Notes under the pieces: generated by a model
Told to the model about the DNA's origin: nothing
What the model saw: the letters and a program-made list of their open reading frames with translations, nothing else
Databases searched by the model: none
Translations under genes and position numbers: made by a program
Assembly (NCBI RefSeq): GCF_034675905.1
Contig: NZ_JAUCCV010000007.1
Span: forward strand, 86,677-150,676
Direction of reading: 5' to 3'
Length of the DNA: 64,000 bases
Source of the DNA: Castellaniella sp.
GTDB taxonomy: Bacteria > Pseudomonadota > Gammaproteobacteria > Burkholderiales > Burkholderiaceae_B
Shown: one piece after another, positions 41,806-63,505 of the stretch
Numbering within the stretch: position 1 is the stretch's first letter
Layout of the letters: each line of letters opens with the position of its first letter

Positions 41806-43479
41806 ATGACGTCCAGCCCCGCGCTTTCCGCATCCCTGGCGCCTGCCAGTCAGGCCGCCGCCGCACATCGGCACGGCTGGCGCAACCAGCTCTGGGTGCT
41901 GCTGGCCGGAGCCATACAGGCGCTTTGCTTCGCCCCCGGCCCCCTGCCCGCCTGGAGTCTGCCTTTCGTGCAGATCGCCAGCCTGGCCATTCTGGCCGCC
42001 CATGTCTGGGGGGCCTCGGGACCGCGGCAGGCAGCTGCTTACGGCTGGCTGTTCGGACTGGCGCAGTTCACCATCGGGGTGTACTGGCTGACCATCAGCA
42101 TGCATCAATTCGGCGGGCTGGCCCTGCCCCTGGCCATCGGCGCGCTGCTGCTGTTCGCCGCCGCCATGGCGCTCTATGCGGCCGGCGCCTGCGCCCTGAG
42201 CGCGTGGCTGTGCGCCGCCCATAAAAATCCGGAACAAACCGCACTGCGGCAAATCCTGAACGCCGCGACCTGGGCCTGCGCCTGGGCGCTGTTCGAATGG
42301 CTGCGCGGGACCTTGTTCACCGGTTTCACCTGGCTGAACGTCGGCTACGCCCATGCCGAAGGCATGTTCGCCGCCTGGGCGCCCTTTATCGGCGTCTATG
42401 GCGTGGCCTGGCTGTCTGCCTTCGCCGCTGGGTCCATCGCCCTGATGGCCCGCGCCAAGGACACCTCGTATGATCGCAGCGCGGCCGCCACGATCGCCCT
42501 GACGCTGCTGACCGGCCTGCTGGGCATTGCCTGGACCCACATCGACTGGTCACAGACGCATGGCCAGCCTCTGTTGATCCGCTTGGTGCAACCCGCTACG
42601 CCGCAATCGGAAAAATTCGACCCTGCCAGCTTTCCCGCCACACAGGCCCGCGCCCGCCAACTGGCAGGCCTGACGGCCAAGACGGCGCAGGACCGCCCTG
42701 CGCTGATCATCCTGCCCGAAACCGTCATGCCGATCTTCCAGGATCAGGCGCCGCTGGCCATCTGGCAGCCCTGGCTGGACCTGGCCCGACAGATGGACGC
42801 CAGCTTGGTCCTGGGGCTCCCCCTGCACGAGCGCACCGCCACGGGTGATCGCTATACCAATGGCGCAACCGTCATCCACCCCGACGACTCTGCCCCTCCT
42901 CTGAGTCCCGGACAATGGCGCTACGACAAACACCATCTGGTCCCTTTCGGCGAATTCATCCCCCCGGGGTTCCGCTGGTTCGTCCAGGCCCTGCAAATTC
43001 CGCTGGGGGATTTCGACCGGGGGGCGCTGCGCCAGCCGCCGCTATCGCTGGCGGGCCAGTCCCTGGCGGTGAATATCTGCTACGAAGATGCCTTCGGCGA
43101 AGAAATTGCCAGGGCGGTCGCCCCAGGCGAAGACGGCGCACCCGGCGCCAACATTCTGGTCAATCTGAGCAATCTGGCCTGGTTCGGCGATACCTGGGCC
43201 TTGCGCCAGCACCTGTGGATCGCCCGGATGCGGGCGCTGGAAACCGCCCGGCCGGTCATCCGCGCCACCAATACCGGCATGACTGCCGCCATCGACCCTA
43301 ATGGTCAGGTGCGCGGCCAGCTGGATCCAGCCATTCCCGGAGTGCTGGACGTGGAGATCCAGGGCGCCCAAGGCCTGACCCCCTACGTGCGGTGGGGCAA
43401 CCTGCCGATCCTGATCTGGGTACTGCTGGGGCTGTTCTTGGCCTGGCGCTACCGGCGGCCCGCCCGCACCGACGCCTGA
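41806..43479 (+). CDS. lnt: apolipoprotein N-acyltransferase
   Basis: ILPET, YDKHHLVPFGE, ICYED catalytic triad motifs. Confidence 0.96.
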   Translation: MTSSPALSASLAPASQAAAAHRHGWRNQLWVLLAGAIQALCFAPGPLPAWSLPFVQIASLAILAAHVWGASGPRQAAAYGWLFGLAQFTIGVYWLTISMHQFGGLALPLAIGALLLFAAAMALYAAGACALSAWLCAAHKNPEQTALRQILNAATWACAWALFEWLRGTLFTGFTWLNVGYAHAEGMFAAWAPFIGVYGVAWLSAFAAGSIALMARAKDTSYDRSAAATIALTLLTGLLGIAWTHIDWSQTHGQPLLIRLVQPATPQSEKFDPASFPATQARARQLAGLTAKTAQDRPALIILPETVMPIFQDQAPLAIWQPWLDLARQMDASLVLGLPLHERTATGDRYTNGATVIHPDDSAPPLSPGQWRYDKHHLVPFGEFIPPGFRWFVQALQIPLGDFDRGALRQPPLSLAGQSLAVNICYEDAFGEEIARAVAPGEDGAPGANILVNLSNLAWFGDTWALRQHLWIARMRALETARPVIRATNTGMTAAIDPNGQVRGQLDPAIPGVLDVEIQGAQGLTPYVRWGNLPILIWVLLGLFLAWRYRRPARTDA

Positions 43480-43480
43480 T

Positions 43481-46385
43481 TCAAGCGTGCGGCGCTCTGG
43501 CGTCGCGCAAACGCTGCTCGAAGCTGTCCTGATCCAGCGGCTCGCCCAGCCAGAATCCCTGCCCGGCGTCGCAACCCATATCGCGCAATAGCTTGTACTG
43601 CGCCTGGCTGGCGATGCCTTCGGCAATGACCCGCATGCCCAGGCGATGCGCCAGGGCCACGACGGATTCGCAGACCAGCCGGGCGGCTTCGTTATCGGAT
43701 ACCTGTTCCGTGACTTCGCGTTCCAGCTTCAGCGTCTCGAACAGCAGATCGCGGGAGGCCAGCAACGCGGGCATGCCGACAGATACCGCCCCCACGCTGA
43801 AACGCATGCCCAGATGATGCAGATAATGCAAGCGATCCCGCATCAGAGGGCCCAGATTCATCAGCAGATGTTCATTGAATTCCAGGGACAGGCAGTCCGG
43901 CGGCAGCCCCTGGGCGTCCAACAGACCGAGCACGGCTTCCAGGCCGGCTTGGGCCAGGCTGAACTGGCCGGGCGATACATTCACGGTCAGACGCAGATCG
44001 GGCGCCATGTCCTGGCGCCACACCCCCAATTGCTGGATGGCTTCACGGAACACCCAATCGCCCAGCGGCTGCATGAGCTGGCGCTCTTCGGCAAACGGAA
44101 TGAAATCCATAGGGGCGATGACACCAAAGGCAGGGTGACGCCACCGCAGCAAGGCCTCGGCCTTGATGATTTGCCCGGTCCGGAAGGAATAGATCGGCTG
44201 ATACAGCAGGAAGAACTGGCCCGCCTCGATGGCCTCGGGCAGCGCCACCAGCAGGTCATGCTGCATGCTGGCCCGGTCTCGCATGGACTGGTCGAAATAC
44301 TGATAGCCATTGCGGCCGGCTGCCTTGGCTTGATACATGGCCATATCGACATGGCGCATCAGCATTTCAGCATTGTCCGCATCAGCCGGATACAAGGCGA
44401 CCCCCAGGCTGGCGGATATCTGGATCATATTGCCTGCCAGCGAATAGGGCTCGGTGATGCCATCCAGCAAGCGCCGGCACAAGGCATCCAGCTGCAGCTT
44501 GTCCAGCCGCGGTCCGTCTGATTTTTCAGCCACCAGGATGACGAACTCATCCCCGCCCAGGCGGGCGATGAAGTGAAGATCATCCGTGCAACTGCGCAGA
44601 CGCTTGGCGACCTCGCTCAGCAGATGATCGCCCATCTCATGCCCCATGGAATCATTGACCTCTTTGAACAGGTCCAGATCCAGAAACAACAGGGCTATGG
44701 ATTGCGTCTGGCGGTCGGCCTCGTCCACCGATACTTTCAGGTGCTCGTTGAAATACTGGCGGTTGGGCAAGCCAGTCAGGGGATCATGGTGCGCCTGATT
44801 CCAGATGGCTGTCTCTACCTGTTTTTTCTGTGTCACATCGCTGAGCATCACCACCCGGCAATTGACCGAGCCATCGTGATTCCAGGCGGTATCCAGCACC
44901 ACGCGCTGGGCATATTCCTCGCCGGATTTGCGCTGCAGCCAGTATTCGCCTTCCCAGCGGCCTTTGGTATTGATGGCATGCCACATCTGGTCGTAGAAAT
45001 CCCGGTTATGGCGACCTGGCCGCAGCAGCACCAGCAATTCACCGGCGACTTCATCGGGCCAATAACCCGTCATGCGGGAATAGGCAGGATTGACGTCGAT
45101 GATGACGCCGGTGGCGTCGGTAATGGCGATGGCCTCGCTGCTGTTTTCATAAGCAATCGCAGCCAACTGGGCGGAGGATTCCGCCTGCTTGCTTTCAGTA
45201 ATGTCCTGCACCAGCCCGATGAGGGCGGCGTCATCGCCTGTCCCCACCAGCGTGATAAAGATCTCGATGTCGAACAATGAGCCGTCTTTGCGACGGCCAT
45301 GACGCTCGAACCGCAGTGTCGAAATCTTCTGATTGCGGCCGGATTTCAAGGCCTCGTCAACCAGATAGCGTTCCCGGGGGGCAATGATGGACAACAGCGT
45401 CAGGTGTCCGATCATCTCGTCAGGCATATAGCCGAAAATATCAGCCATTTTTTGGCTGACGAAACTGAAACGGTCACGGGCGATCAGGAAAATCCCCACC
45501 AAGGCATTGGACGCCAAGCCCTGAAAGATAATTTCAGACCGCTGCAACCCTTCCTGGTCTTCGCGCATCTGGGTCAGCAGTTCGTGAATCTGCTGCGCGC
45601 CCGCATTGTAGGCGTGGGCGATTTCAGTGATCTCGCCCACGCCCGCAGGCGCCACCCGAGTCGTGTAATCGCCCTGCAAGAGATCCCGAGCAGCGAGATT
45701 CAAGGTTCGCAGCGGCAGCAAGACGCCACGGCGCACCAACAGAAACACCCCCACCAATAGACCGAGATCCAGCAAAATCAGAGCAATCAACCAGTTCAGC
45801 GCCTGGCTCTTGGCGCCGTGCAAGATGGGCATCAACGCGTCCGACGCCGCATTGAGCGTACCCAGCAAAGTACCGGCATCGTCCGCGATCCACTGGCGCT
45901 GCACCGCATGCGGCAAATCCCGCTTTTCAGCCGCGGCATCCCCCCAGGAATAGGAGTCCAGCATGACCGCCTGCAGGCGCCCGCGCAACACCACCCAATC
46001 GCGCTGTATCTTGGGCAGCAGCAGACGAACCGGCGCCTGTCGCAATGCGGAAATCTCGCGGTCCCCTACGACCCCCCCCCTGATCCAGGGCCCGCAGGGC
46101 CAGATCCATGGCATCGATTTCCTTGCTGATCTGCCCGGTCTGCAGCAAGCCGCCATCGGCCAGCCGCATCGCCCGCACCGCCAGTTGCTGACTGAGCGTG
46201 CGCATGCTGCCCAGCGTCGCCGACTGATCCAGCGCGGCGTCATAGCGCGACATGAGCGAATACACCAAAGCCGCATTGCCCAGCACAAAGGCCAGCATCA
46301 CACCATAAAAGACAGCCGATATTGACCTGAGCCCGAACAAGATGCGGGCGGCAGGCCCTGCTGGTTTCGAAAATCGTGGGCGCAT
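43481..46385 (-). pseudogene. membrane sensor-HAMP-PAS-PAS-GGDEF-EAL protein, frameshifted at a G9 tract
   Basis: N-terminal part in ORF 45927-46385 (TM plus NarX/PilJ-like), remainder in ORF 43481-46288. Frames switch at the C9 run 46072-46080 (G9 on the coding strand); G8 gives LDQGGVVGDREIS. GGDEF intact; EAL present but DDFGTG replaced by GAVSVG. Confidence 0.85.
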
Positions 46386-46610
46386 GCGATCCTGATGGTT
46401 AAGGAATGGCGGTTATCAGCCGCCGCCAGGGATGTTCCCCTGTTGCCACCAAGCATGTTACCGGATATGCCAACAAAGACAATCCGACAAAAGCCCGATT
46501 CCTGGCGGGAAATCAAGCTTTTGCCAGGAAGATATGAAAAAGCGCTGCAATGGCCGACGCAACGTACGCCGGCACTACCGCCTCACTACCGGTAAAAAGG
46601 CGGAAAAAGT

Positions 46611-46731
46611 GGAATTTTGGAATGTGGTTTGGAAGTTTGGAAGGAAATTCGAGGCGAAAAAAAGCACCTACATGATGTAGATGCTTGATTTCACTGAATT
46701 ATTTGGCGGAGCGCAGCGTTTCAATTCCAAA
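46611..46731. other. att-like junction: arm-like repeats around a tRNA 3'-end remnant
   Basis: TTTGGAA x3 (46616-46642); TGGCGGAG at 46704-46711 reads CTCCGCCA on the minus strand (tRNA-Ser-like 3' end); inverted TTCCAAA at 46725-46731. Marks the switch from host to phage genes. Confidence 0.6.
46657..46686 (-). terminator. intrinsic terminator downstream of the tRNA 3'-end remnant
   Basis: Minus strand AAGCATCTAC-atcat-GTAGGTGCTT-TTTTT, with one G-U pair consistent with this orientation. Confidence 0.65.
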
Positions 46732-46744
46732 AAAATGATGTAAA

Positions 46745-46800
46745 TTAGCGGTAGCTAATTAGCGTTGGCTATTGACTTAACCTTAGTCATGGCTAATAAT
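46745..46800 (+). promoter_or_regulatory. O_L/P_L-like operator-promoter
   Basis: TTAG-N6-CTAA at 46745-46758 and 46783-46796, one-mismatch copy at 46759-46772; TTGACT (46772-46777) with AATAAT (46795-46800). Confidence 0.8.
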
Positions 46801-46833
46801 CCTCTCGAAGCCACAGCTATTTGAGAGGAAAAA

Positions 46834-47043
46834 ATGACCATCGCCACCACCTCTACAGCCGCCGATCTGTTCGTGTCGTCTGTTGCCCGTATTCAAGATC
46901 AACTGGCCCGCCTGCGGGCCGCTGCCGACAACCACTTCGATGCCGATCCCTCCCGGATCAACTGGGGGCACGTTGGCGACCTCGGTCGCATCGAGGCCGC
47001 CCTGAAAAACGCCTGTGCTGTCGCCTTTAACGAGGCCGAGTGA
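46834..47043 (+). CDS. small phage hypothetical protein (DNHFDADPSRINWGHVGDL)
   Basis: 69 aa, RBS GAGAGG, first gene after P_L. Confidence 0.75.
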   Translation: MTIATTSTAADLFVSSVARIQDQLARLRAAADNHFDADPSRINWGHVGDLGRIEAALKNACAVAFNEAE

Positions 47044-47134
47044 CCCCACACCCTGCCCCTGCCCGCGCGGAGGCATGAGCGGGGTCATTCGGCCCTTCCT
47101 GCAGCGTCAGTCAACCATCTATAGGAGTTTCTCC

Positions 47135-48113
47135 ATGACCATTATCGGCATCGCTCTTGGCAAGCACTACGACAAGAAGTGGAAGCGCATCGACGAAGAC
47201 GGCAGCGTCCTGTCGCCCGCACAGCACTATTTCGACGATCACCCGATCTTTTCTCGGCCTGGCCGATGAGGAAATCAACGGCCAGGCCATGGTTCGTGTC
47301 CCGGCGTTCTACTACCGTAATGGCGTCATCACGGATGGCGACCTGGCGGGCAAGAAGGCGTTATGGATCAGCCCGACCCCAGCCGACGGCTTTACGCGTC
47401 ACCCCGCCTTCATGCACCACGGTGCGCCTATCGATCAGTTCTGGATCGGCAAGTACCAGGCGACGGCTGACGGCCCCCTTATGGGTTCCTGCGCTGGTGC
47501 GATGCCGCTGGCTAGCATAGATTTTCCGACGATGAAAGACCGCGCTGCCCAGCGCGGCGATGACTGGATGCTCTGGAGCGTCTATCAGCTCGCTGCGGTT
47601 CAGATCCTCGCCTTGATCGAACATGGCACGCCCGATCTGGCCTCTGTTGTTGGTGCTGGATACGTGGATGGCGACGGCGTTCGGCCGGTTGATGATGAGC
47701 TGGTCGCCCAGGCTGCGTATCGCGGCATCACCGGCCTGTGGGGCAACGTGTGGCAGATGCTCCAGGGCCTGGGGACGAACGGCGAGCGCGAATGGCGGAT
47801 CTGGGATATGGCAGGCCGTCAAGAGCTGATCGATACCGGCATCGCCGCGCCCGAGAACAACTGGTTTCACCGACGGCAGCGCAAGGCTGGCGCGGATTTC
47901 GACCTGGGTGCTGTTTTCCTGCCCAAGAAGACGCGCGATGCGCAGGGAGATTCCGGCTTCGGTGATTACATCTGGGCCTGGTCAGATGGCGAGGTCGCGT
48001 ACCACGGCGGTCTTTGGTACGGCGGTGCGCTCGACGGGCTGTTCTGCTTGGTCGTCATCAACGCCGCGTCGCACTCCAATGCGTACATCGGCGGCCGCCT
48101 CGCAAAGGTGTGA
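47135..48113 (+). CDS. C-type-lectin/FGE-fold protein with a DGR-type variable region; frameshift at T4 47249-47252
   Basis: RBS AGGAG and MTIIGIALGKHYDKKWKRIDEDG...HPIF join LGLADEEINGQAMVRVPAFYY if one T is removed. FWIGKYQA, GLWGNVWQM; C-terminus GGLWYGGALDGLFCLVVINAASHSNAYIGGRLAKV. Confidence 0.75.
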
Positions 48114-48145
48114 TGGGTCACGTCTTAAGTGTCATGCAAACGGGC

Positions 48146-48167
48146 GAGCCCGCCGAGCGGGCCGCTC
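48146..48167 (+). other. GC-rich hairpin downstream of the VR-like end (DGR homing cruciform candidate)
   Basis: GCCCGC-cga-GCGGGC (48148-48162), about 35 bp after the stop codon. Confidence 0.5.
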
Positions 48168-48184
48168 ACTGAACTGGAGCTGCT

Positions 48185-48319
48185 ATGTCTGCTACCCCCA
48201 TCATTCCCGGCCGCCTGTACCGCGTTCGTGGTCAGGGTTTCGACGTCACAGTGATTGCCACCGATGCTGCGGCCGCAATCATCATCATGCTTCCGAGGGT
48301 CATGCCATGCGAAGCCTAA
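48185..48319 (+). CDS. 44-aa phage hypothetical protein
   Basis: MSATPIIPGRLYRVRGQGFDVTVIATDAAAAIIIMLPRVMPCEA; RBS GGAG; below the ORF-track cutoff. Confidence 0.6.
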   Translation: MSATPIIPGRLYRVRGQGFDVTVIATDAAAAIIIMLPRVMPCEA

Positions 48320-48414
48320 TGATTCGTACCTGCGTGGCATTCCGACTGCGCCGCGACCCCGCCCTGCGCCTGTCGTGGCGATCAAGCTGGCGCATCGCAG
48401 GAGAGATGCAGTGA
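48319..48414 (+). CDS. 31-aa phage hypothetical protein
   Basis: MIRTCVAFRLRRDPALRLSWRSSWRIAGEMQ; coupled by TAATG and GTGA overlaps to its neighbours. Confidence 0.5.
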   Translation: MIRTCVAFRLRRDPALRLSWRSSWRIAGEMQ

Positions 48415-48650
48415 GTCCCGCTCGAGGCATGGCGCATGTCGAGGTTTTCCTGGGCGATGATGAGCTGATCGCCGTGAACGCCCTGCTGGAAAAACTGATC
48501 GTTGCGAACTACGGCCCGCATCCCGACCTCTTTCTGTCGCTGGCCGACGGCGACCAGGTGATGGCGGCGGACATGCTGTCGGGCGCCTGCATATTCCACA
48601 TGGCGGCCCGGCGCGTCATGCGGGTGCGCAATATGCCGGAGGCCGCATGA
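48411..48650 (+). CDS. phage hypothetical protein
   Basis: GTG start overlapping the previous stop; ends with the ATGA overlap typical of phage operons. Confidence 0.6.
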   Translation: MSPARGMAHVEVFLGDDELIAVNALLEKLIVANYGPHPDLFLSLADGDQVMAADMLSGACIFHMAARRVMRVRNMPEAA

Positions 48651-48925
48651 AGAAAGACGCTACCGCGCCGCCCGCCACCACCGTGCAGCTCAAGCAGGCC
48701 CTGGCCGCCGCGCGTCTGAATATATCGCTCGAAGACGCACTGCGCTCACCAGCCCTGACACGCTGCCTCGAAATCACCGCAGAGGTCATGGTATCTGACC
48801 CGGATCTCTGCGGCGCCCGGACAGATCATCGTGCATCGCGCGAGCCGCTGCCCGTCCTCGCGCACGAAGTCGCAGCGCCACGCATGGACGTGAAACGTGC
48901 CGCCGCTGGTGACACGGACGATTGA
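48647..48925 (+). CDS. phage hypothetical protein
   Basis: 92 aa, translationally coupled to the upstream gene. Confidence 0.65.
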   Translation: MKKDATAPPATTVQLKQALAAARLNISLEDALRSPALTRCLEITAEVMVSDPDLCGARTDHRASREPLPVLAHEVAAPRMDVKRAAAGDTDD

Positions 48926-48927
48926 CC

Positions 48928-49338
48928 ATGAAAAAGAAGCGCCGCATACCCCGCACGATACGCATCCCGGTCACTCGCGCCCTGCGAGATGAGTTCGCAA
49001 TGCTGCTGTACACGTCGCTCTGGAGCCTTGAGCACGCCCCAGGAGCCGATCCGTTTGACAACCTAGCGGGCGTTTTCAACGTGGTGCAGCTTGCGCTCGA
49101 GCACGACGCCGCGCACCGCCATGAGGCGCGTCTTATCACTGGCGGTGCCGCTGCCCTGAATCAGGCGATGAACCGGATCATTTCCGGCAAGCCGCCCGCC
49201 GATCACGAAATCGCGCCCATTCGCGTGAGCGTGGAAACCATAGACAGGCTGCTGGGCCGTTTGGACGTGTCAGTCCTATACGCCGCCATGCAGCGCCTGC
49301 GCGATCTACGCGCAGCACCCGAAAAAAGAGAGTTGTGA
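48928..49338 (+). CDS. phage hypothetical protein
   Basis: MKKKRRIPRTIRIPVT..., helical, in the same operon. Confidence 0.7.
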   Translation: MKKKRRIPRTIRIPVTRALRDEFAMLLYTSLWSLEHAPGADPFDNLAGVFNVVQLALEHDAAHRHEARLITGGAAALNQAMNRIISGKPPADHEIAPIRVSVETIDRLLGRLDVSVLYAAMQRLRDLRAAPEKREL

Positions 49339-49628
49339 CTATAAAGGAGAAACCTATGTCACTAGAGGATTTGATCGATACAGATTCCCGGCCTGCCAGC
49401 AGGCTGCATGCAACCATGGAGTCCCGCCGCCGACTGGAATTGTGCAGCGAGCAGATGGCTGAAGGCGCCCGCCTTGTCATCGATGTTCTGGATGAACTCA
49501 TTGCAGAGCATGGAGACCTGCCGATTAGCGATACCCTGGCTGATCGGCTGATAGAGCGCATCGGGCTGCTCGACCGCGCCCAGGCGGCTTTATCGGACGC
49601 AATGCAGGGGAGGCATCGCCATGCTTGA
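49335..49628 (+). CDS. phage hypothetical protein
   Basis: 97 aa, overlaps both neighbours. Confidence 0.6.
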   Translation: MTIKEKPMSLEDLIDTDSRPASRLHATMESRRRLELCSEQMAEGARLVIDVLDELIAEHGDLPISDTLADRLIERIGLLDRAQAALSDAMQGRHRHA

Positions 49629-49854
49629 AACTGGCATTCTGCTGACCCGTGCACAGCTTGAGGAGCTAACGGGCATGAAACAGCCTGCGCGGATGGTGGC
49701 ATGGCTCGAGCAGCGGCATTGGGTGTACGAACCCGCCGCGCGTCGAGGCGGAATCCCCAGGGTATCGCGGCAGCATTTCGAGGCCCGTATGTCGGGCAAG
49801 TCGAACGCGCGGCGCCGTAACGGGCCACGGCTCGACTTCTTCGCAGCACAATGA
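49621..49854 (+). CDS. excisionase-like protein (DUF4224 type)
   Basis: LTRAQLEELTGMKQPARMVAWL...GGIPRVSR; ATGA-coupled to the integrase. Confidence 0.8.
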   Translation: MLETGILLTRAQLEELTGMKQPARMVAWLEQRHWVYEPAARRGGIPRVSRQHFEARMSGKSNARRRNGPRLDFFAAQ

Positions 49855-50957
49855 GCCGACAGCGCACCCGTCAGGATGGCCTGCCTTATCGTGTCTACGA
49901 GCGCAGGGGCACTATTACCTATTCAATCGGGTACAAGCTCCCTGATGGCCGGTGGGCGTTTCGCCTGAAGTGCCCCGTCAAGGATCGCGCCAAGATGGCA
50001 GAGATCCGTGCCGAGGCGATTCGTCGGGCAGGCGAGATCGGCTTGGGTCGACCGGCTGACGATTCCGTTGATGCGTTGATTACGGTGTGGCTGGAGTGGC
50101 AGGAATCTCTACCGCTTAACAGCCCGAAACGACGCGCTGACTCGACGCTGGCCGAGAACAAGCGCGAGATCGTCCGGCTGCGTAAGGCGTTCGGCCACAT
50201 GGCGGTGCGCGACCTCACGAAGACGGACGCCTACGCCTACCTGGATGCGTGCGTTAAGGCGAGCCGCGCCGCCAAGGGGAACAAGGAAATATCGCTGATG
50301 CGCCGCATTTTGGAATATGGCGTGCGCCTAGGCCTGCTAACAGTCAACTCGTTTGACGGTGTCGAGAAGAACGAAACCGCCGAGTATGACCGCCTGGTGA
50401 CCGATGAAGAAATTGCCCTGGCCGAACGCGTGGGCCGGAAGATGGGCGGCCCGCAGTTGATCGTGGCGCTGGCACTGAAAACAGCCTGGCTGTGCCTGAA
50501 ACGTTCCGTGGAGGTGCGAGCGTTGACACACCCACAAATCACCGATGCTGGCATTGAGTGGGTGGCGGCCAAACGGCGGCGGGGTGCCATTCCAAGGGTC
50601 GGGATTATCGAGTGGAGTCCAGAGCTGCGAGCGACGATTGATGATGCCCTGGCGATCAAGCGTTATGACCTCGCGGGCGACTGGTATGTGTTTGGAAATT
50701 TGCGCGGCGAGCGGTACACAAAAGGTGGCTGGAAGAGCACGCTATCGCGGCTCATGAACGAATGCGTGGAGGTGGCCACCAAGGAAAGCATCCCGTTTAA
50801 GCCATTCAGCCTGCAGGACTGCCGCCCTAAGGGTGTGTCAGACAAACTCCAGCGTGGGGACAAAGACGTCATGGAAGCGACGCTGCACACGTCGGAGCGG
50901 ATGATCCGCAAAACCTACGACAGGCGCCGTGTGCGCCATGCGAAGCCCGCAGAGTAG
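49851..50957 (+). CDS. int: tyrosine recombinase / phage integrase
   Basis: LCLKRSVEVR (catalytic R), LQDCRPKG (HxxR variant), LHTSERMIRKTYDRRR (catalytic Tyr); intact 368 aa. Confidence 0.9.
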   Translation: MSRQRTRQDGLPYRVYERRGTITYSIGYKLPDGRWAFRLKCPVKDRAKMAEIRAEAIRRAGEIGLGRPADDSVDALITVWLEWQESLPLNSPKRRADSTLAENKREIVRLRKAFGHMAVRDLTKTDAYAYLDACVKASRAAKGNKEISLMRRILEYGVRLGLLTVNSFDGVEKNETAEYDRLVTDEEIALAERVGRKMGGPQLIVALALKTAWLCLKRSVEVRALTHPQITDAGIEWVAAKRRRGAIPRVGIIEWSPELRATIDDALAIKRYDLAGDWYVFGNLRGERYTKGGWKSTLSRLMNECVEVATKESIPFKPFSLQDCRPKGVSDKLQRGDKDVMEATLHTSERMIRKTYDRRRVRHAKPAE

Positions 50958-50961
50958 GGAA

Positions 50962-51345
50962 TTATCCGTCGTGGCCCATGCCCACAATAAAGCCCGATAC
51001 GACTCTGTCGAGGGCTTTTTTCTCGGCTGTCGATAGCTTGCTGTACGACTCATAGGACGTCGAGAAAGGCCAGCCGTTCGCGCGGTTCTGGATGTGTGGC
51101 TGGTGGTTGTCCACCTCTCCCTCTTTCAGGTACTTCGGCCCTTCACCTGTCGCAATCCACCATGTGTGGACGCGAAAGAAGGCCGCTGCGCGGATGGCGT
51201 TTGAGGCCTCCATCTGCTTGGTCTTTCCGGACAGCCAGCCGTTCACGGACGGTTGCTTCACGCCGCAGGCGCGGGCGAGATCGACGGGCCTGGCCTCGGG
51301 GCGCTCGGCAAAGAGTTCAGAGAATCGTTCTGTAAGTGTGGACAT
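50962..51345 (-). CDS. CI-like XRE HTH repressor without an S24 peptidase domain
   Basis: VDLARACGVKQPSVNGWLSGKTK HTH; divergent from cro; 127 aa. Confidence 0.85.
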   Translation of the reverse strand: MSTLTERFSELFAERPEARPVDLARACGVKQPSVNGWLSGKTKQMEASNAIRAAAFFRVHTWWIATGEGPKYLKEGEVDNHQPHIQNRANGWPFSTSYESYSKLSTAEKKALDRVVSGFIVGMGHDG

Positions 51346-51346
51346 A

Positions 51347-51423
51347 TTAGCTAATCCTAAATGTTTTTCACATAGGTGTGGCTTGCTTTTTATCCTTAGG
51401 TATGGCTAAATATGCACTGCTAA
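51347..51423. promoter_or_regulatory. O_R/P_R operator-promoter region
   Basis: TTAG-N6-CTAA at 51347-51360 and 51396-51409; CCTTAG-nn-ATGGCTAA is shared (14/16) with 46781-46796. Confidence 0.8.
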
Positions 51424-51440
51424 GGATTTGGAGACCAACC

Positions 51441-51659
51441 ATGAAACGCATCGCCGAGCATCCGGATGCCGCTGTCATTGAACGCCTCGGGGGGACGTCA
51501 GCCGTCGCTCGCATGTGCAAGATCGAGGCCCCGTCTGTTACGAAGTGGAAGAAAACCGGGATACCCCAGGCACGCAGCATGTACCTGCGCGTACTGCACC
51601 CCGAGGCATTCCTGTCCGCTTCGCCCGACACGGCCAGCTCGCATCCAGCGGGGCAATGA
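51441..51659 (+). CDS. Cro-like (YdaS-type) HTH protein
   Basis: IERLGGTSAVARMCKIEAPSVTKWKKTGIP; RBS GGAG. Confidence 0.85.
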   Translation: MKRIAEHPDAAVIERLGGTSAVARMCKIEAPSVTKWKKTGIPQARSMYLRVLHPEAFLSASPDTASSHPAGQ

Positions 51660-51731
51660 TGATGAGCGCCCCATACTCCGCCCTTCCTTTTTCAATGTGG
51701 CCTCATTGTGCGACTTCGAAGGAGGACAGTC

Positions 51732-52300
51732 ATGCGTAGCATGTCGCAAACCACGATCACCATCCTGCGCGATGAGATTACCGAGTATCGGCGGGGCAAG
51801 CGCTTGTCGCGTGAGACTGTCGCCGCTGGCATCGTCGACGCGCACGAACGCCTGGGCGCCGACGTGGTGACAGGCATCCGCTTCGAGCCCAAGACGGTTG
51901 ATGCGTTCGAGCGCACCAAAGTGAACGCCGACCGAATCTTTCGATGGTTGGACGATGTCACCAAGGACGGCGTGTTTGTTGCCTGCGAACTTTCTGGTTT
52001 CTGTGCTGGCTGGTCTGCCCGAGGATGTTCGTCGTCGCGTTCTGGATCGGATGCTGCTGCCGCTCGGGTTCGCTGTCCGATCCCTTGGCGACAACCAGAG
52101 CGCTGCGGCCGTGTCTGCCAGCATGGTCGCCACGCTGGTCCGGGAGCAAAGCGAGGCAGCAGCAGCGACCACCAACCTGCTGGGAACCGCCGACCGCGCA
52201 GCCCTGCTAGACGCCAGACGCGAGATGGCCGAGGCCGTCGACGTCGGCGCAGAACCTGCTCGCGCATCTGGATGCGCAGATCTCGGAGGGCCAGGAACGC
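51732..52300 (+). pseudogene. CII-like (YdaT-type) regulator, frameshifted; end approximate
   Basis: MRSMSQTTITILRDEI...RIFRWLDDVTKDGV continues as LLPANFLVSVLAGLP only if one T of 51975-51977 is removed; follows cro. Confidence 0.6.
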
Positions 52301-52455
52301 ATGAAGCCAGCCCCGAAACCCGTACCGCGCCGCCCGCGCTCTGTGCAGCAACGCGCGGATCGCAAGGCGCAACAGACGCAATCACACAACCGCCCACCCG
52401 GGACCCATGCCGTCTGCCGTACGGCCGTCTGGTCGTCGGCCCAAGGGGGCGTCTG

Positions 52456-52647
52456 ATGGCGCACGAATTCGACCGCGCCAGCGAGCGCGAACAGGAGGCC
52501 CGCGACGCCGCGCTGGCCGCCACCCGCCGGGCCGCTGCGGCGATGCCGAAGGGTGAGCCGGGCGAGTGCGACCGCTGCGGCGAGTACTTCGTCCGCTTGG
52601 TCGGCGGCCTATGCGGCTTCTGCCGCGACGGTAGGTCGCGCCCATGA
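52456..52647 (+). CDS. TraR/DksA-like C4 zinc-finger protein
   Basis: MAHEFDRASEREQEARDAALAA...GECDRCGE...LCGFC. Confidence 0.75.
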   Translation: MAHEFDRASEREQEARDAALAATRRAAAAMPKGEPGECDRCGEYFVRLVGGLCGFCRDGRSRP

Positions 52648-52891
52648 TGCAGCCGGTTGCCCGCCTGCTTTTTTTCACGCCCGCGTTGAGTGGGGTAATC
52701 CCCGTTCCCCCAGGGAGAGCAGCAGGCCGCGTGGTTGCGTTGCGGGATGGGTTGCGCCTCGGTCGGCTCTGTTGCTTTTTTGCAACCAAGGTGGGGACCC
52801 TGGCGGATTCCTGGTCTTGCGGGGGCGCGCACCCGCGAAATATCGCTAGGCTGCGGGCCTGCAACATAGGCAACTGTCTGGGGGCCGCCGT

Positions 52892-55358
52892 ATGAGCTGG
52901 AAGAACTACGACGACGTGCTCTCCCAGCTTCGGGCCGCTGGCCTGGATGTCGATACGGAACGTTCGACGTCGGCACGTCGCGGCCTATTCGGTGCCGGGA
53001 GTACAACGGCGACCGCGAAAAGCGCGGCTGGTATTGGCTGAACGAGATCTGGCTCGACGAATACGACGACGCGGGCAAGCCCACAAAGGGCTGCTACATC
53101 GTCGGCAGCTACGGGGTCTATCGCGGTAAAGAGTCGGGCAAGCAGAAGATTCGGCTGTCGCGCAACGGCGCCACCATGAGCGCACAGCAGGCCGCTGCCA
53201 TGAAGGCCCGGCACGCCGAGAACGTGCGCCGCGCCAAGGCTATACGCGCCGCCGAGCAGGAGCGTGCCGCGCAGGCCGCCGCACGCGGCTGGGCCAAATA
53301 TCAGCCGGTGAGCGCCACGCCGTCCGAATACCTGGCCCGTAAGGGCGTGGGTGGCCACGGCGTGCGTTACTCGCCGTCGGGTAACGGCACCATCGCCATC
53401 CCGATCTGCGACGACACCGGCAAAGTCTGGGGCTTGCAGATCGTGCGAGGCCGCGACGGTGGTAAGCGCCTGGAAAAGCAGTACTGGCCCGCTGGCATGA
53501 ACAAGGCGGCGCACTACCACATGCTGGGCGCACCTGGCGCCGTGATTCTGCTGGCCGAGGGCTACGCCACCGCCGCGACGTTGTTCGAGGCGACCGGGTT
53601 GTGCGTCGTGGCGTTCGATGCCGATAATCTGATGCCGGTCGCCCAGGCGCTGCACAAGTCCTACCCCAAGGCGTACATCCTGGCGTGCGCCGATGACGAT
53701 TACCTCACAAAAGACCCCCACGGCAACCCGTGGAACCCCGGCGTCGAGGCCGCCCAGGCCGCGGCGACTGCCGTGCGCGGCGGATGGGTGGAGCCCGAGT
53801 TTCCCGGCGACCGCGAAGGCAAGAAGCTGACGGACTTTAACGACCTGCAGCACTTCCCTTTGGGTGGCCAGGCGTTGGTACGCGCCCAGATCGAGATGGC
53901 CCTTGCTGCTGCCGGGCATGATGCGGCAGCGGTCGGGCGGCCCGGCTTGCGGACTGGTGGCTTCGGCAGGCCGGGAACCCAGCCAGGGGGAAGGGGAAGG
54001 CGGAAAACGTCGCGCCGAAGCTGTCATGCCTCTGGATGATCTGGTGGAGCGCTTCGTGCCGGTTGATGATGGTACGGGCGACACGGTCTTTGATCTATGG
54101 ACGAACCGCATTGCGCGGCGGGCGCAGATGGTCGCGTTGCTGCCCGCTGGCGTACGCGCCGACGACATCAAGCGTCATCCGTTGTGGGTCGAGCGCGGCG
54201 CCTACTTCATCGATCAGATCGGCTTCGACCCGGCTGGCAAAGACGATGCGGTGGCACTCAACACCTGGCGCGGCTGGCCGATGGCCCCGCGCGACGGCTC
54301 ATGCCGCGAGCTGCTCGACCTGTTGCGCTACTTGTGCGAAGGCGAGAGCAATGCCGATGAGGTGTACGAGTGGATGTTGTGCTGGATGGCGTACCCGCTG
54401 CAGAACCCAGGCGCGAAGATGTCAAGCGCCATCATCATGCACGGCCCGCAGGGCACGGGCAAATCCACGATCTTTCAGACGCTGGCGAAAATCTACGGCG
54501 ATTACGCCACGGTGCTGAACCAGCGCGGCCTGGAGGATCGGTTCAACAGCGACTGGGTCGATAGCAAGCTGTTTCTGCTGGCCGAGGAAGTGGTAACCCG
54601 TGCGGAAATGTGGCATATCAAAAACGAGTTGAAAGAGCTTGTCACGGGCGAATGGATACGGGTGAACCCGAAGAACCTGGCCGCCTACCGTCAGCGCAAC
54701 CACGTCAACATCGTTTATCTGTCGAACGAGGGCCAGCCGCTGCCCATCGATAACGACGACCGCCGTCACCTGGTCATCTACACGCCACCCGCCCTGGCAG
54801 AGGACTTCTACGACGCGGTCAACATCGAGCTCGAGCACGGTGGGGTCGAGGCGTTCTACTACTTCCTGATGCACGTCGACCTGGCCGACTTCCATCCCAA
54901 AAGCGCCCGCCAATGACCGAGTCAAAGCAAAAGCTGATCGACCTATCGCTGCCCTCCGAGGCGGTGTTCGTGCGCGAGTGGCAGGCGGGCCAGCTTGAAA
55001 TCGACGAGGGCAAAGGTCCCATGCCGTTCTGCCCATGTCTGGGCGGGCACCTGTACACCACCTACAAGAAATGGTGCGCCCTGACGGGCGTCGTGCGGCC
55101 TCGCGATGAAACGCAGTTCATCGGATACGTGGGCCGCTTGCCCGAGTGGCAGGCTGGCAAGCCCGTGTCCACCCTGGAGAGCCTGAACAGCACAGCCTAT
55201 AAGAGCCGCAAGATGGTGATCCCCAGCCCTACCGCCGTCGCCGATGCACAGGCTGCGGGCGCGACGACCATTAGTGATGGCGACGGATCGAAAACAGGGG
55301 CCGTTGGCTGACTGAATGTTTTTTCGCGTTCAACAATGCGATGGGAGGCGGCCTGTGA
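52892..55358 (+). pseudogene. primase-helicase (Toprim plus SF3/D5-like ATPase plus C-terminal domain), about 4 frameshifts
   Basis: MSWKNYDDVLSQLRAAGL; Toprim LAEGYATA and ACADDD; Walker A GPQGTGKS; LAEEV; DRR. Pieces in ORFs 53176-54039, 53864-54916 and 54913-55311; one more A in the A4 run at 54899-54902 gives PKKRPPMT. Confidence 0.85.
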
Positions 55359-55368
55359 TAGTACGCCG

Positions 55369-55585
55369 TATTACGCCACTTATTACCGAAAAACACGCGG
55401 CAGGCGGGGATATGACTTGTATTACGCCTATGACCCCGTTCGCCCGCCCGCGTGACGTGAAAACATCTAACGTGCATGTTTACCCCTCACATGAGGCGCG
55501 TAACCCCGTCACAGGCGTAATACAAGTAATAGTCTCGCTTAAAAAGGTTCTAGGGGTAATAAAGTGAGTAATAAATGGGGTAATA
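55369..55585. repeat. convergent hexamer arrays, candidate phage replication origin
   Basis: TATTAC at 55369, 55381 and 55420, then its complement GTAATA at 55517, 55526, 55556, 55568 and 55580; AT-rich; directly after the primase. Confidence 0.65.
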
Positions 55586-55620
55586 AGGTTTGAGGCAGTC
55601 GATTTCGGTGGGGCTTCGTC

Positions 55621-56257
55621 ATGATCCTGGAATCGAAAGCCGCTTTCTCGTCGCCTGGGCGTCAATAAATCCACGATCACCCGCGCCGCACAGGCTGGTC
55701 GCCTGGTCATGCAGGGCGATCAGGTCAATGTCGAGGCCAGCCTGGCCCGCTGGCGCGCCGCAAAGGGGCCGCACCGATGTCGCGGAACGCTTCGCGGCGC
55801 AGCGCGGGCAGTCCATCCCCGACGTATCAACCCCTTACCCCCCCGAAGAAAACCCCACAGCGGGCGATTCTGGCCCGTTGCCGGAGCGGGGTTGCGGGCG
55901 GGTTGGTGCGCAACCTTTCACGCGACGGGCCGACACCGGCAGCGCCGGTCACTCCCCTGCAAACCGCGGCCTGACCCTCAGTTCGAGAACGAAACCATCA
56001 AGCTGGAGATGGCGCTGCGCCGTCACATGCGCTACCCCGCTGCCGTTCTCGTGCGGCGGGAAGCCTACGGCCTGGGCCTGGCCCTGCGGGCGTCCGTCGA
56101 GCGCATGGTGGTCAAACCGCGCCGCGCCTGGCCGCTGCCCCGACGCCAGAGCGCCGTGCGCTGCTGGTAGCTGAATGCGCCGCGCTGTCGCGTGCCATTG
56201 CCTACCGAGTTCGTCCGCGCCCTGCGCCGTCTGCGTGCCTCGGAGAAAAAATCATGA
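55621..56257 (+). pseudogene. terminase small subunit-like protein, several frameshifts
   Basis: Reconstructed MILESKAAF.RRLGVNKSTITRAAQAGRLVM...VNVEASLARW (HTH) and ENETIKLEMALRR...RALRRLRASEKKS. Confidence 0.6.
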
Positions 56258-56419
56258 TGATCCGCGAACTTTCGATTTTCCACCCTCCGGGCTTATAATG
56301 GCCGTGCGCTGGTAGACAACCGGCGCACGGGGTTCGCAGCCCGGAATACCAAGGCGCGCAGCCGCCTGGAAACCGTTCACGCGGCTTTTTCACTCTCTGC
56401 GCGCAGCATGGCACTCCTC

Positions 56420-56496
56420 TGGGCGGGCATGCGGGGGAGGGCTTCGGCCCTGCCGGTTCCTGGTTCCAGGTCTGCTAACCCGCATGTGTCCGCCCA
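56420..56496 (+). ncRNA. C4-type antisense RNA (P1 c4 / P4 CI-like cloverleaf)
   Basis: TGGGCGG/CCGCCCA and CATGCGGG/CCCGCATG stems, AGGGC-TTCG-GCCCT and CCTGG-tt-CCAGG hairpins, TGCTAACC tract; upstream near-complement GGGTTCGC at 56330-56337; TATAAT at 56294. Confidence 0.7.
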
Positions 56497-56582
56497 CCTC
56501 GTTTCAGGAGGCGGCGGCTCTCGACCGCGTCCAAGGAGTCACGCCATCAGCTGGTAAATCGTGGTGCGCACCCGCGCACGTC

Positions 56583-56847
56583 ATGCCACCCGGAAGCATC
56601 CCGGGCCACCACCACCCAAGAAACACCCATCTGCCTGGCCGATGCCAGCGGCTATTCGCTGTTCGCCGTGCGTGATGGCGTCCGCGCCGACACCGCGTTG
56701 GCGCAGGCGGCCAGCATGCTTCGCACTGCCCACGGCCTGCTGGTCAATTCCAGCGAGATGGGCGACGACGATCAGTACGCCGCCGGCCTGTTCCTGCTCG
56801 AGGGCGCCAGCGCCCTGATCGATTCCATCAACGGGGGCCAGCCATGA
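56583..56847 (+). CDS. DUF3077-like small protein (5' end frameshifted)
   Basis: LFAVRDGVRADTALAQAASMLRTAHGLL...GLFLLEGASALIDSI; stop overlaps the BRO start (ATGA). Confidence 0.5.
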
Positions 56848-57750
56848 ACAGCCTGGGATCCCCTTCGACTTCGACCAGCACTCCGTGCGTGCCGTGGCCG
56901 ACGAAGATGGCCGCGCCTGGTTTGTTGGCTCGGACGTCGCCGAAGCCCTGGGGTACGCGGAACCCGCGGCTATCCGGCAGCATTGCGAGGGGGGGCGAAA
57001 CACACCCCCTTCCGACCGCTGGCGGCATCCAGGACGTCCGCCTGATTTCCAGCCGGATCTGTACCGTCTGGTGGTGGGCAGTCGCCTCCGCCGCCGAGCG
57101 CTTCGAGCGCTGGGTGTGGACGTCCTGCCCACGATCCGGCGCACCGGCAGCTACTTCGCCCAGCCAGCCGCTGCCGACATGCGCGGCGTGAACACCGCCT
57201 TCTGGCTGATCCCCCACCTGCCGTACGGGCGGCACGCAGCCTGGGCCTGCAGCGTGAGGCCGCAATCGTCGCCGCCAATCGCACCGTCGCCAGCCTGACC
57301 GGCGTGGATGCCATGCAATTGCTGGACATCAAGGCACCCGCTGCCGCTGCGCTTCCAGGGGCCCGAGCAGAGGCCGAGTTCCTGCTTGCATGGCAGCAGG
57401 GCACTGTGGTGCTGGTCGATGACGCCGACCCGCTGCCCTTTGTGCCCTGCACCGGGCGGCAACTGCACGCGGCTTACCTGCATTGGTTCCGCCGCGAACA
57501 GCGCCCAGGCTGGCCGCAGGCTGAAACGCGGTTCGTGGGCTTCGTCGGCCGTCAGCCCGGCTGGGTGGCTGGCCGCCCGCAGCAGACCTACCGCGACCGC
57601 ACCGGCGCGAGGTGGCTGTCTCGCAAGATGGTTATTCCCGCCAACCTCATGTCGCCCATGAGCCAGACCCGCACGGAATGGCTCACCGAGGGCTATTTCA
57701 CCTTCCAGGCCGCGCTGGATGCGGCGCAATCCATCGGAGACCAAGAATGA
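56844..57750 (+). pseudogene. BRO-N antirepressor fused to a primase-C-terminal-like domain, multiple frameshifts
   Basis: Reconstructed PFDFDQHSVRAVADEDGRAWFVGSDVAEALGY...EPDLYRLV...AERFERWV..VLPTIRRTGSY. ARSLGLQREAAIVAANRTVASLTGVDAMQLL is in frame with ORF 57304-57750. Confidence 0.75.
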
Positions 57751-58123
57751 ACGGAACAGAAATCTCATACGCCCTGGCAAAGCAGTTGACCAGCGCTACC
57801 ACCATCGAGAGCAACTATGGCTCCATCGATCTGGACGCTGAACTGCGCCGCGCCGTCGACGCTGCTGTACGGCCCATTCTTGAGCGACGCATGGCCGCTT
57901 TTGAGCGAGGCAGCACCAATCCTGAAAACCTCATCGAGGGCATTCAGCGGCAATGCGCAGGGTACGCGAAGATGTGTTGCCGGAATATGACGCGATCCCT
58001 ACCGGCGCTTTCGCCGCGAGACTGATGCGCCAGTCGATCCGCGCCGCCGAAGCCGCCATCGCTTCCGGCGACGTCGTGGCGATGGTGTCCGCGTATGGCG
58101 ACCTGGAGGGCTATCAGGTATGA
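57747..58123 (+). CDS. phage hypothetical protein(s), frameshifted near 57960
   Basis: [12 protein letters not shown]... and a second frame [44 protein letters not shown]; ends in an ATGA overlap with ASCH. Confidence 0.5.
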
Positions 58124-58511
58124 AGACCCTGTCCGTTCGCCAGCCCTGGGCGTGGCTCATCGTCAACGGCTACAGCCCATCGAGAACCGTGACTGGCCTA
58201 CGCACCAGCGTGGCCCGATTCTGATCCACGCATCCAAGGGCATGACACGTGATGAGTACGGACGTTGCGGGATTAGCCCAATCTCTCGGCATCGCCATCC
58301 CAGCATTCGACGAGTTAGAGCGCGGCGGCATCGTTGGTCGAGCCGTGATCACCGGGTGTGTCACGGATCACGCATCCCCGTGGTTCTTTGGTAGGTATGG
58401 GTTTGTGCTGGCCGACGCCAGGCCTATGCCGTTTCAGCCGTTGCGCGGGCGGCTGGGTTCTTCGATGCTGCGTCTCCGGTTGAGCAATTGGCTACATCGC
58501 GTGGAGATTGA
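58120..58511 (+). pseudogene. ASCH domain protein, frameshifted
   Basis: [39 protein letters not shown]...[13 protein letters not shown]...[17 protein letters not shown]. Confidence 0.8.
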
Positions 58512-58515
58512 TGGC

Positions 58516-59025
58516 GTGTCTGATTCTGGAAAACGTGTGCTTGACCCGTGCTGCGGCAGCAGGATGTTCTGGTTCGACCGGCAGCACCCCGACGTCGTGT
58601 TCGGCGACCGCCGTCACGAAACCATCAGCGTCACGGACAGATCGCACGGCCGCGCCGATGGCGTGCGCACGCTGCGCATTGAGCCGGATGTACTGATGGA
58701 TTTCCGAGCGCTGCCGTACCCAGACGGCGCCTTCAGGCTCGTTTCCTTTGATCCCCCGCACCTGGTGCGCGCTGGCAAGAATTCCTGGCTGGCGGCGAAG
58801 TACGGAAAGCTCGGCCCAGACTGGCGCGAGGATCTGCGCCAGGGGTTTGCCGAGTGTTTCCGCGTGCTTGCCCCCGACGGCGTGCTGATTTTCAAGTGGA
58901 ACGAAACCCAAGTTAAGGTCGCGGACGTCCTGGCGTTGACCGCTGTGCCGCCGTTGTTCGGCCATCCGACTGGACACAAGGGGCTGACGCACTGGATCGT
59001 GTTCATGAAACCACGCGAGGCCGCC
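58516..59025 (+). CDS. phage class I SAM-dependent methyltransferase (reads through into the next gene)
   Basis: VLDPCCGSRMFWFD, DFRALPY, FDPPHL, FRVLAPDGVLIFKWNE, THWIVFMK. Confidence 0.8.
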
Positions 59026-60393: not shown

Positions 60394-60403
60394 GGCTGCA
60401 CTG

Positions 60404-62554: not shown

Positions 62555-62575
62555 CCAGACCAGAAGGATACAACC

Positions 62576-63090
62576 ATGAACAACAAACTCGCCGCCAGTC
62601 AGAAAAACACAGTCTTGGACGATATCGCGGCCGAGATCGAGATGCGTGCCACCATCCTGCTCGCGGCCTGGTGGGGCGGCCGCAACATCGTTGTGCCCGA
62701 CACCCGGCCAGAGCACAGCGTCATTGCCAAGGTGATCGGCGAGGAAGCTGCTCGGCGGTTGAGCGCCGTGTGGCCCGGCGCCCAGATCTTCGTGCGCTGC
62801 GCCTGAACTGGTTTGAAGAGATCCGCAAGGCCCGCCAAGTCCACAACCTGCGCGCCCGTGGGCTGGGCTGGAACGAGATCGCCCAGGTCATGGTGATGAC
62901 CCGCCGCGAGGTCGAGGAGATGGGCGAAATCGGCCGATTTGCCACCGAAGCTATCGCACAGGAAAAGACCGGCCGCAGCGTGAACCCACTCTTTGAGCTG
63001 GAACGTCCACAGGTTCGTGGCGGCCGTGGCGGGCAGACCAAAAAAAGCGGTGTGCATGGTGCCAAAACCGCCCAGAAAACAGAGGCGTGA
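62576..63090 (+). pseudogene. Mor-like transcriptional activator, frameshift near 62795
   Basis: LDDIAAEIEMRATILLAAWWGGRNIVVP...VIGEEAARRL, continuing as LRLNWFEEIRKARQVHNLRARGLGWNEIAQ (HTH). Confidence 0.6.
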
Positions 63091-63091
63091 T

Positions 63092-63403
63092 ATGAATGCG
63101 AAATCTGGAGACATACTGACGACGGACGAGGTCAATGCGATCATCAAGGATTGCGAGGCCACCGTTGCTACCTACAACCAATTTGCACGCGACATTGAGG
63201 CGGCGGTTCTGGAGAAGCTGCGCAGCCACGATATCGAGGGCCTCATCGACCGGGCCTATCTCGAGTTCGACGCCATGCGCAGCGGCACAGGTGAATTCCG
63301 GGGGCAATCCTGGGATGAGTGCGATGCCTTCAAGGCACACATGCGCCGCTTCGCGTATGCCCGCTATCATGAACTGATCGGCCAGGTGCTGCGGGCGCAG
63401 TAA
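63092..63403 (+). CDS. phage hypothetical protein
   Basis: 103 aa, starts 2 bp after the previous stop. Confidence 0.6.
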   Translation: MNAKSGDILTTDEVNAIIKDCEATVATYNQFARDIEAAVLEKLRSHDIEGLIDRAYLEFDAMRSGTGEFRGQSWDECDAFKAHMRRFAYARYHELIGQVLRAQ

Positions 63404-63505
63404 GGGTAACGGCGGATAAACCATCCCCGCACGGCGGGATTTCAGCGTAATTTCATAAAATCCGTCAGGCTTCCTTGATAGGTAACATATAAAAGGAAGT
63501 GGATA

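Follow-up and report, generated by a model that had tools for sequence, protein, structure and literature searches.

A lambda-type lysogeny switch with its early-left promoter at the attachment site, very probably native to a temperate phage clade found in Castellaniella and other Alcaligenaceae

Introduction

Convergent promoters that face each other over a short distance are found at the lysogeny switch of coliphages 186 and P2. The recombination genes can also be rearranged with respect to the lambda plan, as in the Shiga toxin (Stx) phage Phi24B, where int is inverted relative to lambda, a stable native feature with regulatory consequences (PMC3064807, Fogg et al.). Here we analyse a 64,000-nucleotide stretch of Castellaniella sp. 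DNA (the window; assembly GCF_034675905.1, contig NZ_JAUCCV010000007.1) that contains the left end of a prophage, with a cI-cro immunity region and an operon ending in the excisionase and integrase genes, xis and int. The predicted early-left promoter (PL) of this operon lies at the attachment site (att), and the operon converges on cI. A preliminary description of the locus had offered three explanations: a past inversion, an invertible lysogeny switch and a distinct native architecture. Our comparison of homologous prophages makes it very probable that the layout is native to a clade of temperate phages whose hosts are Castellaniella and other Alcaligenaceae and whose integration site is the 3' end of a tRNA-Asp gene, the window copy being defective. 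A stable alternative wiring of the lambda-type switch is documented in this way, and the inversion idea finds no support.

Results

A single gene order in eight genomes

The window (positions 86677-150676 of contig C7) belongs to a 3.07-Mb genome in 10 contigs, with about 62% G+C, and the genomes nearest to it are those of Castellaniella. Homologous elements were gathered with the Int and CI proteins as queries. The module is carried by 8 genomes, the window's included, and Int identity across the 7 independent relatives, which come from several genera, is about 73-93%.

L004: C. denitrificans CCUG 39541 (genome G001), Int 93% identical to that of the window
L005: a Castellaniella metagenome-assembled genome (MAG), Int 89% identical
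L009: Alcaligenaceae CGII-64, Int 85% identical
L006: Castellaniella sp. S9, Int 78% identical
L016: IMG/VR contig, Int 77% identical
L043: G216, another genus, Int 78% identical
L044: G302, another genus, Int about 75% identical

The layout is defined in the window by the following genes.

49621..49854, plus strand: xis, DUF4224, a PHROG excisionase, overlapping the start of int by 4 nt
49851..50957, plus strand: int, a tyrosine integrase (phrog_1, 6.4e-24 over residues 7-360)
50958..50961: gap between the converging stop codons of int (50955-57) and cI (50962-64), which lie 4 nt apart
50962..51345, minus strand: cI, a 127-amino-acid (aa) helix-turn-helix (HTH) repressor, with a PHROG repressor match and weak HTH matches in Pfam
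51441..51659, plus strand: cro-like gene, divergent from cI; the G001 homologue matches P22_Cro at 1.9e-5, below the Pfam cut-off

The catalytic set of Int (R218, R325, H346, Y356) is invariant in the 7 homologues, and searches of Pfam, NCBIfam and PDB with the Int sequence returned no significant match. The same three databases gave nothing for cI beyond weak HTH matches, the Pfam search finding an HTH only and no Peptidase_S24 domain. The weak HTH_3 and P22_Cro matches, alongside the PHROG repressor matches, support the cI/cro pair.

All 8 genomes show one orientation, with xis and int on the same strand, cI transcribed toward int, and cro divergent from cI, and an operator-bearing promoter heads the same operon wherever the sequence of the relatives extends far enough. 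The same order and orientation is recorded for L004, L005, L006, L009, L016, L021, L043 and L044. The int gene stands 3-6 kb from att in all 8 genomes, while PL abuts the phage attachment site (attP) and reads toward cI. The two stop codons of int and cI are 1-4 nt apart in five relatives, and the genes overlap in L006; in L044 an insert of a few hundred bases with small plus-strand open reading frames (ORFs) separates int from cI, the orientation being unchanged.

We found no relative with the canonical order, and no intermediate, among the homologues of Int or CI. IMG/VR yielded no match with cI and one contig with Int; in a phage collection we found no close relative, the DNA search giving one 240-bp match and the best Int match being 28% identical. 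Int homologues of Hydrogenophaga (L007, L008) were set aside, as they have unrelated surroundings rich in insertion sequences and without cI.

The free phage and its attachment site

The same arrangement is seen outside a chromosome. L044-L046 (G302:C1) form a 39,250-bp contig from a fragmented MAG, with no host genes and with ends that follow on from each other in the phage gene order; it represents the nearly complete and circularly permuted genome, free of host DNA, of a related phage with an intact attP. Its order is tail-fibre end, avd, reverse transcriptase (RT) gene, P arm with a terminator, tRNA-Asp core, two copies of TTCCAAAA, left operators (OL) and PL, target gene of a diversity-generating retroelement (DGR), xis, int, and cI on the opposite strand. 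Since this free-phage contig shows both PL at att and convergence on cI, the two features are part of the phage itself. The distinct native architecture, one of the three options of the preliminary description, is thus supported by the shared order in 7 relatives and by an unintegrated contig with an intact attP.

The free-phage order in full is tail fibre, avd, DGR template repeat (TR), RT, attP, OL/PL, accessory genes, xis, int, cI (opposite strand), right operators (OR), cro, then the replication and late genes, and attP consists of a P arm with a terminator, a tRNA-Asp core of about 49 nt and a P' arm with two units of the candidate arm motif ATTCCAAAA. It follows from this order that PL, after integration, occupies the leftmost edge of the prophage and reads inward, with about 10 bp between it and the last arm unit.

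Integrated copies agree with this scheme. Direct repeats of the tRNA-Asp 3' end, 46 nt long, bracket prophages in G001, G002 and G003, where they are 43.4, 41.4 and 39.5 kb apart. The complete 43.4-kb prophage of G001 has a repeat of 49 nt and nearly all its genes on one strand; about 115 bp with two arm units separate its left repeat from OL/PL, and ATTCCAAAATTGGAATTTGGAAT and a terminator stand before its right repeat, overlapping the end of the RT gene. The att repeats of G001 (C4:101751 vs 145146), like those of G003, differ at tRNA position 17, with G on the left and A on the right (GGGGCTC vs GGGACTC). This difference places strand exchange, as read from the repeats, within the first 16 nt of the tRNA 3' end.

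The corresponding features of the window are the following.

46605..46650: TGGAAT/TTTGGAA repeats (TTTGGAA at 46616, 46628 and 46636), resembling the P arm of the related attP
46662..46686, minus strand: terminator hairpin with a T run, downstream of the tRNA 3' remnant; the same hairpin stands left of the tRNA-Asp fragment in L009 and L006
46704..46713, minus strand: tRNA-Asp 3'-end remnant TGGCGGAGCG, the 10 nt that remain of an att core of about 49 nt
46720..46735, plus strand: candidate Int arm-type site TTCAATTCCAAAAAAA of the P' arm, containing AATTCC and invariant in a 4-way alignment

The att-like tRNA site of the preliminary description is real, and its tRNA is Asp, not Ser as had been stated, TGGCGGAGCG matching the tRNA-Asp 3' end. 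The arm motif, which is conserved in the P' arm of attP and present as two units in the free phage, occurs twice in L004, L005 and L009 (TTCAATTCCAAAA), and the shorter TTCCAAAA twice in L044. From the end of the last arm unit (46735) to the start of the first operator (46745) is a distance of about 10 bp, and this close spacing is conserved in the relatives.

On the host side of the junction, the repeats at 46605-46650 and the terminator have a counterpart (ATTCCAAATTTGGAAT with a terminator) in L044, on the left side of the core of its intact attP, and also at the right attachment site (attR) of G001. They are probably a fossil P arm from an earlier integration. The same flank of TTTGGAA repeats and terminator occurs in L006 (4480-4590) and L009 (about 4800-4850). 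In L009 a fragment of an integrase N-terminus, 50% identical, lies further left of this flank.

A second copy of the left junction was not found in the genome. The tRNA-Asp gene at C10:3404-3480 was considered as attR and rejected, because the DNA beside it belongs to another island, low in GC, that has an integrase and a possible mobilisation gene of its own. This tRNA-Asp is the only intact one of the genome, and the island that precedes it (C10:1-3480, L002) runs off the start of the contig; its integrase is a different one of 430 aa, and a lysine-rich protein of 368 aa may be a mobilisation protein.

Two operator clusters and their promoters

Regulatory elements lie at both ends of the segment between att and cro.

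46745..46796: OL, with operators at 46745-58 (exact), 46759-72 (one mismatch) and 46783-96 (exact); layout kept in L004, L005, L009, L006 and L044
46772..46800, plus strand: PL-like promoter, TTGACT-17-AATAAT, scoring 10/12, with its -10 hexamer at 46795-46800; hexamers conserved in the relatives
46800..46829, plus strand: hairpin in the 5' untranslated region, in the PL leader; UCCUCUC pairs with the Shine-Dalgarno sequence GAGAGGA of orf69
51347..51409: OR, between the divergent cI and cro, with operators at 51347-60 (exact), 51372-85 (degenerate) and 51396-409 (exact)

The operator TTAGNNNNNNCTAA (TTAG-N6-CTAA) has four exact matches in the 64-kb window, at 46745, 46783, 51347 and 51396, and all of them fall in the two clusters (0 in 100 shuffles; 0 expected). 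The proposal of the preliminary description that the same operator marks OL and OR of one immunity system is borne out by these four sites, confined to two clusters, and the reading of the clusters as OL and OR, with predicted binding of CI to both, is supported. That description had counted three left and two right copies of the same operator; the clusters are real, and the left site at 46759 (TTAGCGTTGGCTAT) has one mismatch to the operator. A third right site at 51372-51385 (ATAGGTGTGGCTTG) is degenerate in the window and nearer the consensus in the relatives.

Each cluster overlaps promoter hexamers, with the same build at both and with a layout conserved in the relatives. On the left, the third operator sits between the PL hexamers. 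On the right, in the 95 bp that separate cI from cro and hold the two exact operators and the degenerate one, direct reading of the sequence gives PR-like hexamers, TTGCTT at 51383-88 and TAAATA at 51407-12, and the surroundings of the cro-side operator at 51396 closely resemble the left promoter (CCTTAGTCATGGCTAATAAT vs CCTTAGGTATGGCTAAATAT). The position of PL at 46772-46800 and the gene order lend support to the earlier statement that transcription from PL is directed rightward, through xis-int and into the end of cI. The PL-leader hairpin is kept in all 4 relatives that have orf69, with single-sided changes and no double compensatory change; it is seen in L004, L005 (16-nt loop insert) and L009.

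A head-on junction without a visible terminator

The preliminary description had xis-int running head-on into the cI stop, 4 bp away, with no visible terminator, and this holds for the 4.2-kb plus-strand operon that PL heads: no terminator-like site on the plus strand was found across 46300-52000. Folds at the int/cI junction were no better than those of shuffled sequences (z between -0.1 and -1.8), an Rfam search of 45500-53000 returned nothing credible, and no N-like antiterminator was recognised.

The window copy as a remnant

Compared with L004, L005 and L009, about 120-140 bp are missing from the left attachment site (attL) of the window. The deletion lies between tRNA position 10 and the second arm unit and comprises most of the 49-nt tRNA-Asp core and one of the two arm units. 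When the prophage part (46834-64000) is compared with the G001 proteins, 11 frame switches are met in 4303 aligned aa, four of them in the primase-helicase and one each in the BRO gene, the DGR target and the gene after cro. The flanking chromosome, about 34 kb (12000-46400), has a single frame switch in 10214 aa, located at the C9 run of a GGDEF-EAL gene. The genes xis, int, cI and cro are intact in the window. Contig C7 ends inside the capsid gene, the right end of the prophage is not in the assembly, and no homologues of the tail genes, avd, RT or TR were found anywhere in it.

As the att core is deleted, frameshifts are many and the late genes are not in the assembly, the window copy is not expected to excise or flip. 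Its excision is probably impossible, and unless the assembly is locally faulty, the copy would be a locked-in, decaying prophage remnant.

Discussion

How the switch may work

The layout suggests the following scheme. CI bound to the three OL sites of a lysogen would occlude PL, keeping xis, int and the other genes of the operon off, and CI would repress both the PL and the PR-like promoters. Upon inactivation of CI, PL would fire and derepression would yield the accessory proteins, Xis and Int. As the 127-aa CI lacks an S24 domain and a gene for a BRO-N protein lies downstream (frameshifted in the window), inactivation would probably be brought about by an antirepressor. PL transcripts, meeting no terminator, would pass int and enter cI as antisense, and transcripts from the cI maintenance promoter (PRM) would likewise run antisense into int in the lysogen; the tail-to-tail abutment of int and cI would then reinforce whichever state is on. 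In the circular genome, PL may be protected from late transcription by the terminator of the P arm. The position of cI directly beyond int rules out a lambda-style sib element there.

One might go further and see in the layout a working device, in which mutual antisense silencing of int and cI is combined with crosstalk between CI and the Int arm sites, tying immunity to the direction of recombination and replacing sib; we consider this conjunction unlikely. If the mutual antisense part were true, the lysogenic state would silence xis-int and the induced state would silence cI. A related proposal, that the left operators mainly regulate recombination, either through CI near the P' arm blocking the excisive intasome at attL or through arm-bound Int repressing PL, draws on the conserved spacing between the arm unit that ends at 46735 and the operator at 46745. 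Against it, OL overlaps a promoter that is conserved and close to consensus, with a Shine-Dalgarno sequence and a gene downstream, in the geometry seen at PR, so that promoter occlusion suffices; the two roles are not exclusive, and we judge a mainly recombinational one improbable.

Native, inverted or switchable

The idea of inversion stemmed from a 6-bp inverted pair at the two junctions. The pair exists (AATTCC at 46723-28 and GGAATT at 50958-63), and it is neither conserved nor above chance level: in 348 of 500 shuffles the two junction regions share an inverted match of at least 6 bp, the relatives have inverted matches no longer than 5-6 bp, at unrelated positions, and GGAATT is absent from the int/cI junction of every relative. 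We regard the pair as a coincidence, in which AATTCC belongs to the predicted arm-site motif. For an active switch, in which 46729-50957 would flip between AATTCC and GGAATT and toggle with the canonical layout, this pair is the only argument; it is countered by the shuffles, by the missing GGAATT, by the single orientation in 8/8 genomes, by the arm-site motif as an explanation of AATTCC and by the lack of a dedicated invertase, and such a switch is exceedingly improbable. The invertible lysogeny switch of the preliminary description consequently loses its footing, and so does a past or recent inversion bounded by the pair, the comparison of gene order across the homologous prophages having shown the same orientation in all 7 relatives and no conserved inverted repeat. 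That the segment was merely assembled in the wrong orientation might be suspected from the contig break inside the prophage and its many frameshifts; the same order in seven independent assemblies from different projects makes the odds of this practically nil.

A different matter is the origin of the layout, which could lie in an ancient inversion, fixed in an ancestor with the lambda order (attP, int, xis, ..., PL, cI) and inherited by the whole clade, and which is compatible with a native, static layout. A single inversion of the segment from attP to cI does turn the lambda order exactly into the present one, and Pseudomonas phage AUS531phi, which shares the gene after cro, has a canonical leftward early-left operon behind cI. 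No member of the clade has an inverted-repeat scar at the junctions, however, the homologues of Int and CI include neither canonical nor intermediate orders, and the tight, conserved packing of PL against the P' arm suggests long co-adaptation. Such an inversion, which would have been left unmarked and is not a current event, is a fair guess, to be held tentatively.

Several points weigh against the native layout and the regulation proposed for it. The evidence on orientation comes from assembled sequences, and rare flipped molecules may exist. The excess of frameshifts in the window could in principle reflect a local assembly problem instead of decay. Within the cI coding sequence, at about 50991-51021, a weak hairpin is followed by a run of six U; it could partly stop PL transcription in the window, L004 and L005, and L009 and L006 lack it. 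The promoter activity, the binding of CI and the read-through are predictions from sequence, and the layout leaves unexplained how Int would be supplied without Xis for integration.

Accessory genes and the diversity-generating retroelement

Between PL and xis, the operon of the window carries the following genes.

46834..47043, plus strand: orf69, first gene of the operon, phrog_14596, unknown function
47135..48113, plus strand: gene of the DGR-target type, a tail-fibre-tip paralogue with a 3' variable region (phrog_5302 tail protein, 6e-35), frameshifted at about 47255
48185-48319, 48429-48650, 48647-48925, 48928-49338 and 49356-49628, plus strand: five small conserved ORFs of unknown function, with homologues in the same order in the relatives

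A C-5 cytosine methyltransferase of 667 aa lies between the orf136 and orf90 homologues in relatives (2901-4904 of L011 in G001; L043) and is missing from the window. Left of the att region, the chromosomal GGDEF-EAL gene starts at about 46385 and reads leftward; it switches frame at its C9 run at 46059-46081.

The G001 prophage has a DGR with two targets. Its TR (prophage positions 42129-42240, between avd and RT; L011-L013) matches two variable regions (VR), VR1 at the 3' end of an 860-aa tail fibre gene (91% to TR) and VR2 at the 3' end of the 346-aa gene that stands second in the PL operon (90%), and the substitutions between TR and VR inside the repeat core fall at adenines of TR. The Pfam matches are RVT_1 (2.7e-20) and bAvd (3.6e-23). 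The two targets flank attP, one on each side. The window gene at 47135-48113 is the homologue of the second target, and its assembly has no cognate TR or RT.

Comparison with known systems

Neither these prophages nor their layout turned up in literature searches, and we found no described phage with exactly this layout, isolates being searched by sequence similarity only. Intact relatives, such as the prophage of C. denitrificans CCUG 39541, would offer a natural system for the study of int/cI collision or antisense and of the control of excision without sib. The wiring itself consists of a second CI-controlled promoter on the att arm, placed at the edge of the prophage, and of recombination genes that end head-on against cI.

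In its DGR, the clade resembles the Bordetella phage BPP-1 type, the relatives having a tail-fibre target, bAvd, TR, RVT_1 and adenine-specific differences between TR and VR. Unlike the BPP-1 type, they have a second target across attP, as second gene of the CI-controlled operon, and a DGR-diversified tail-fibre-tip paralogue under repressor control is unusual.

The resemblance to lambda and P22 is extensive: an HTH repressor divergent from cro, three palindromic operators with a shared half-site at each of two early promoters, one operon of accessory genes that ends in xis-int, a tyrosine integrase, arm-type sites and a tRNA-type core. In contrast to lambda and P22, PL adjoins attP and does not stand behind cI, int lies 3-6 kb from attP and not next to att, the operon points the same way as cro and the late genes and meets cI tail to tail across a gap of at most 4 nt, CI is without the S24 autocleavage domain, and no place is left after int for an element of the sib type. 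With 186 and P2, the clade shares the head-on transcription of lysogenic and lytic units in the logic of the switch, whereas here the predicted collision is between the 3' end of a 4-kb operon and that of cI. Inversion in Phi24B is limited to int, which is transcribed from a promoter of its own outside the control of CI, while xis stays under PL (PMC3064807); in the phages described here, the whole operon including xis and int is reoriented, and it still lies behind the predicted CI operators.

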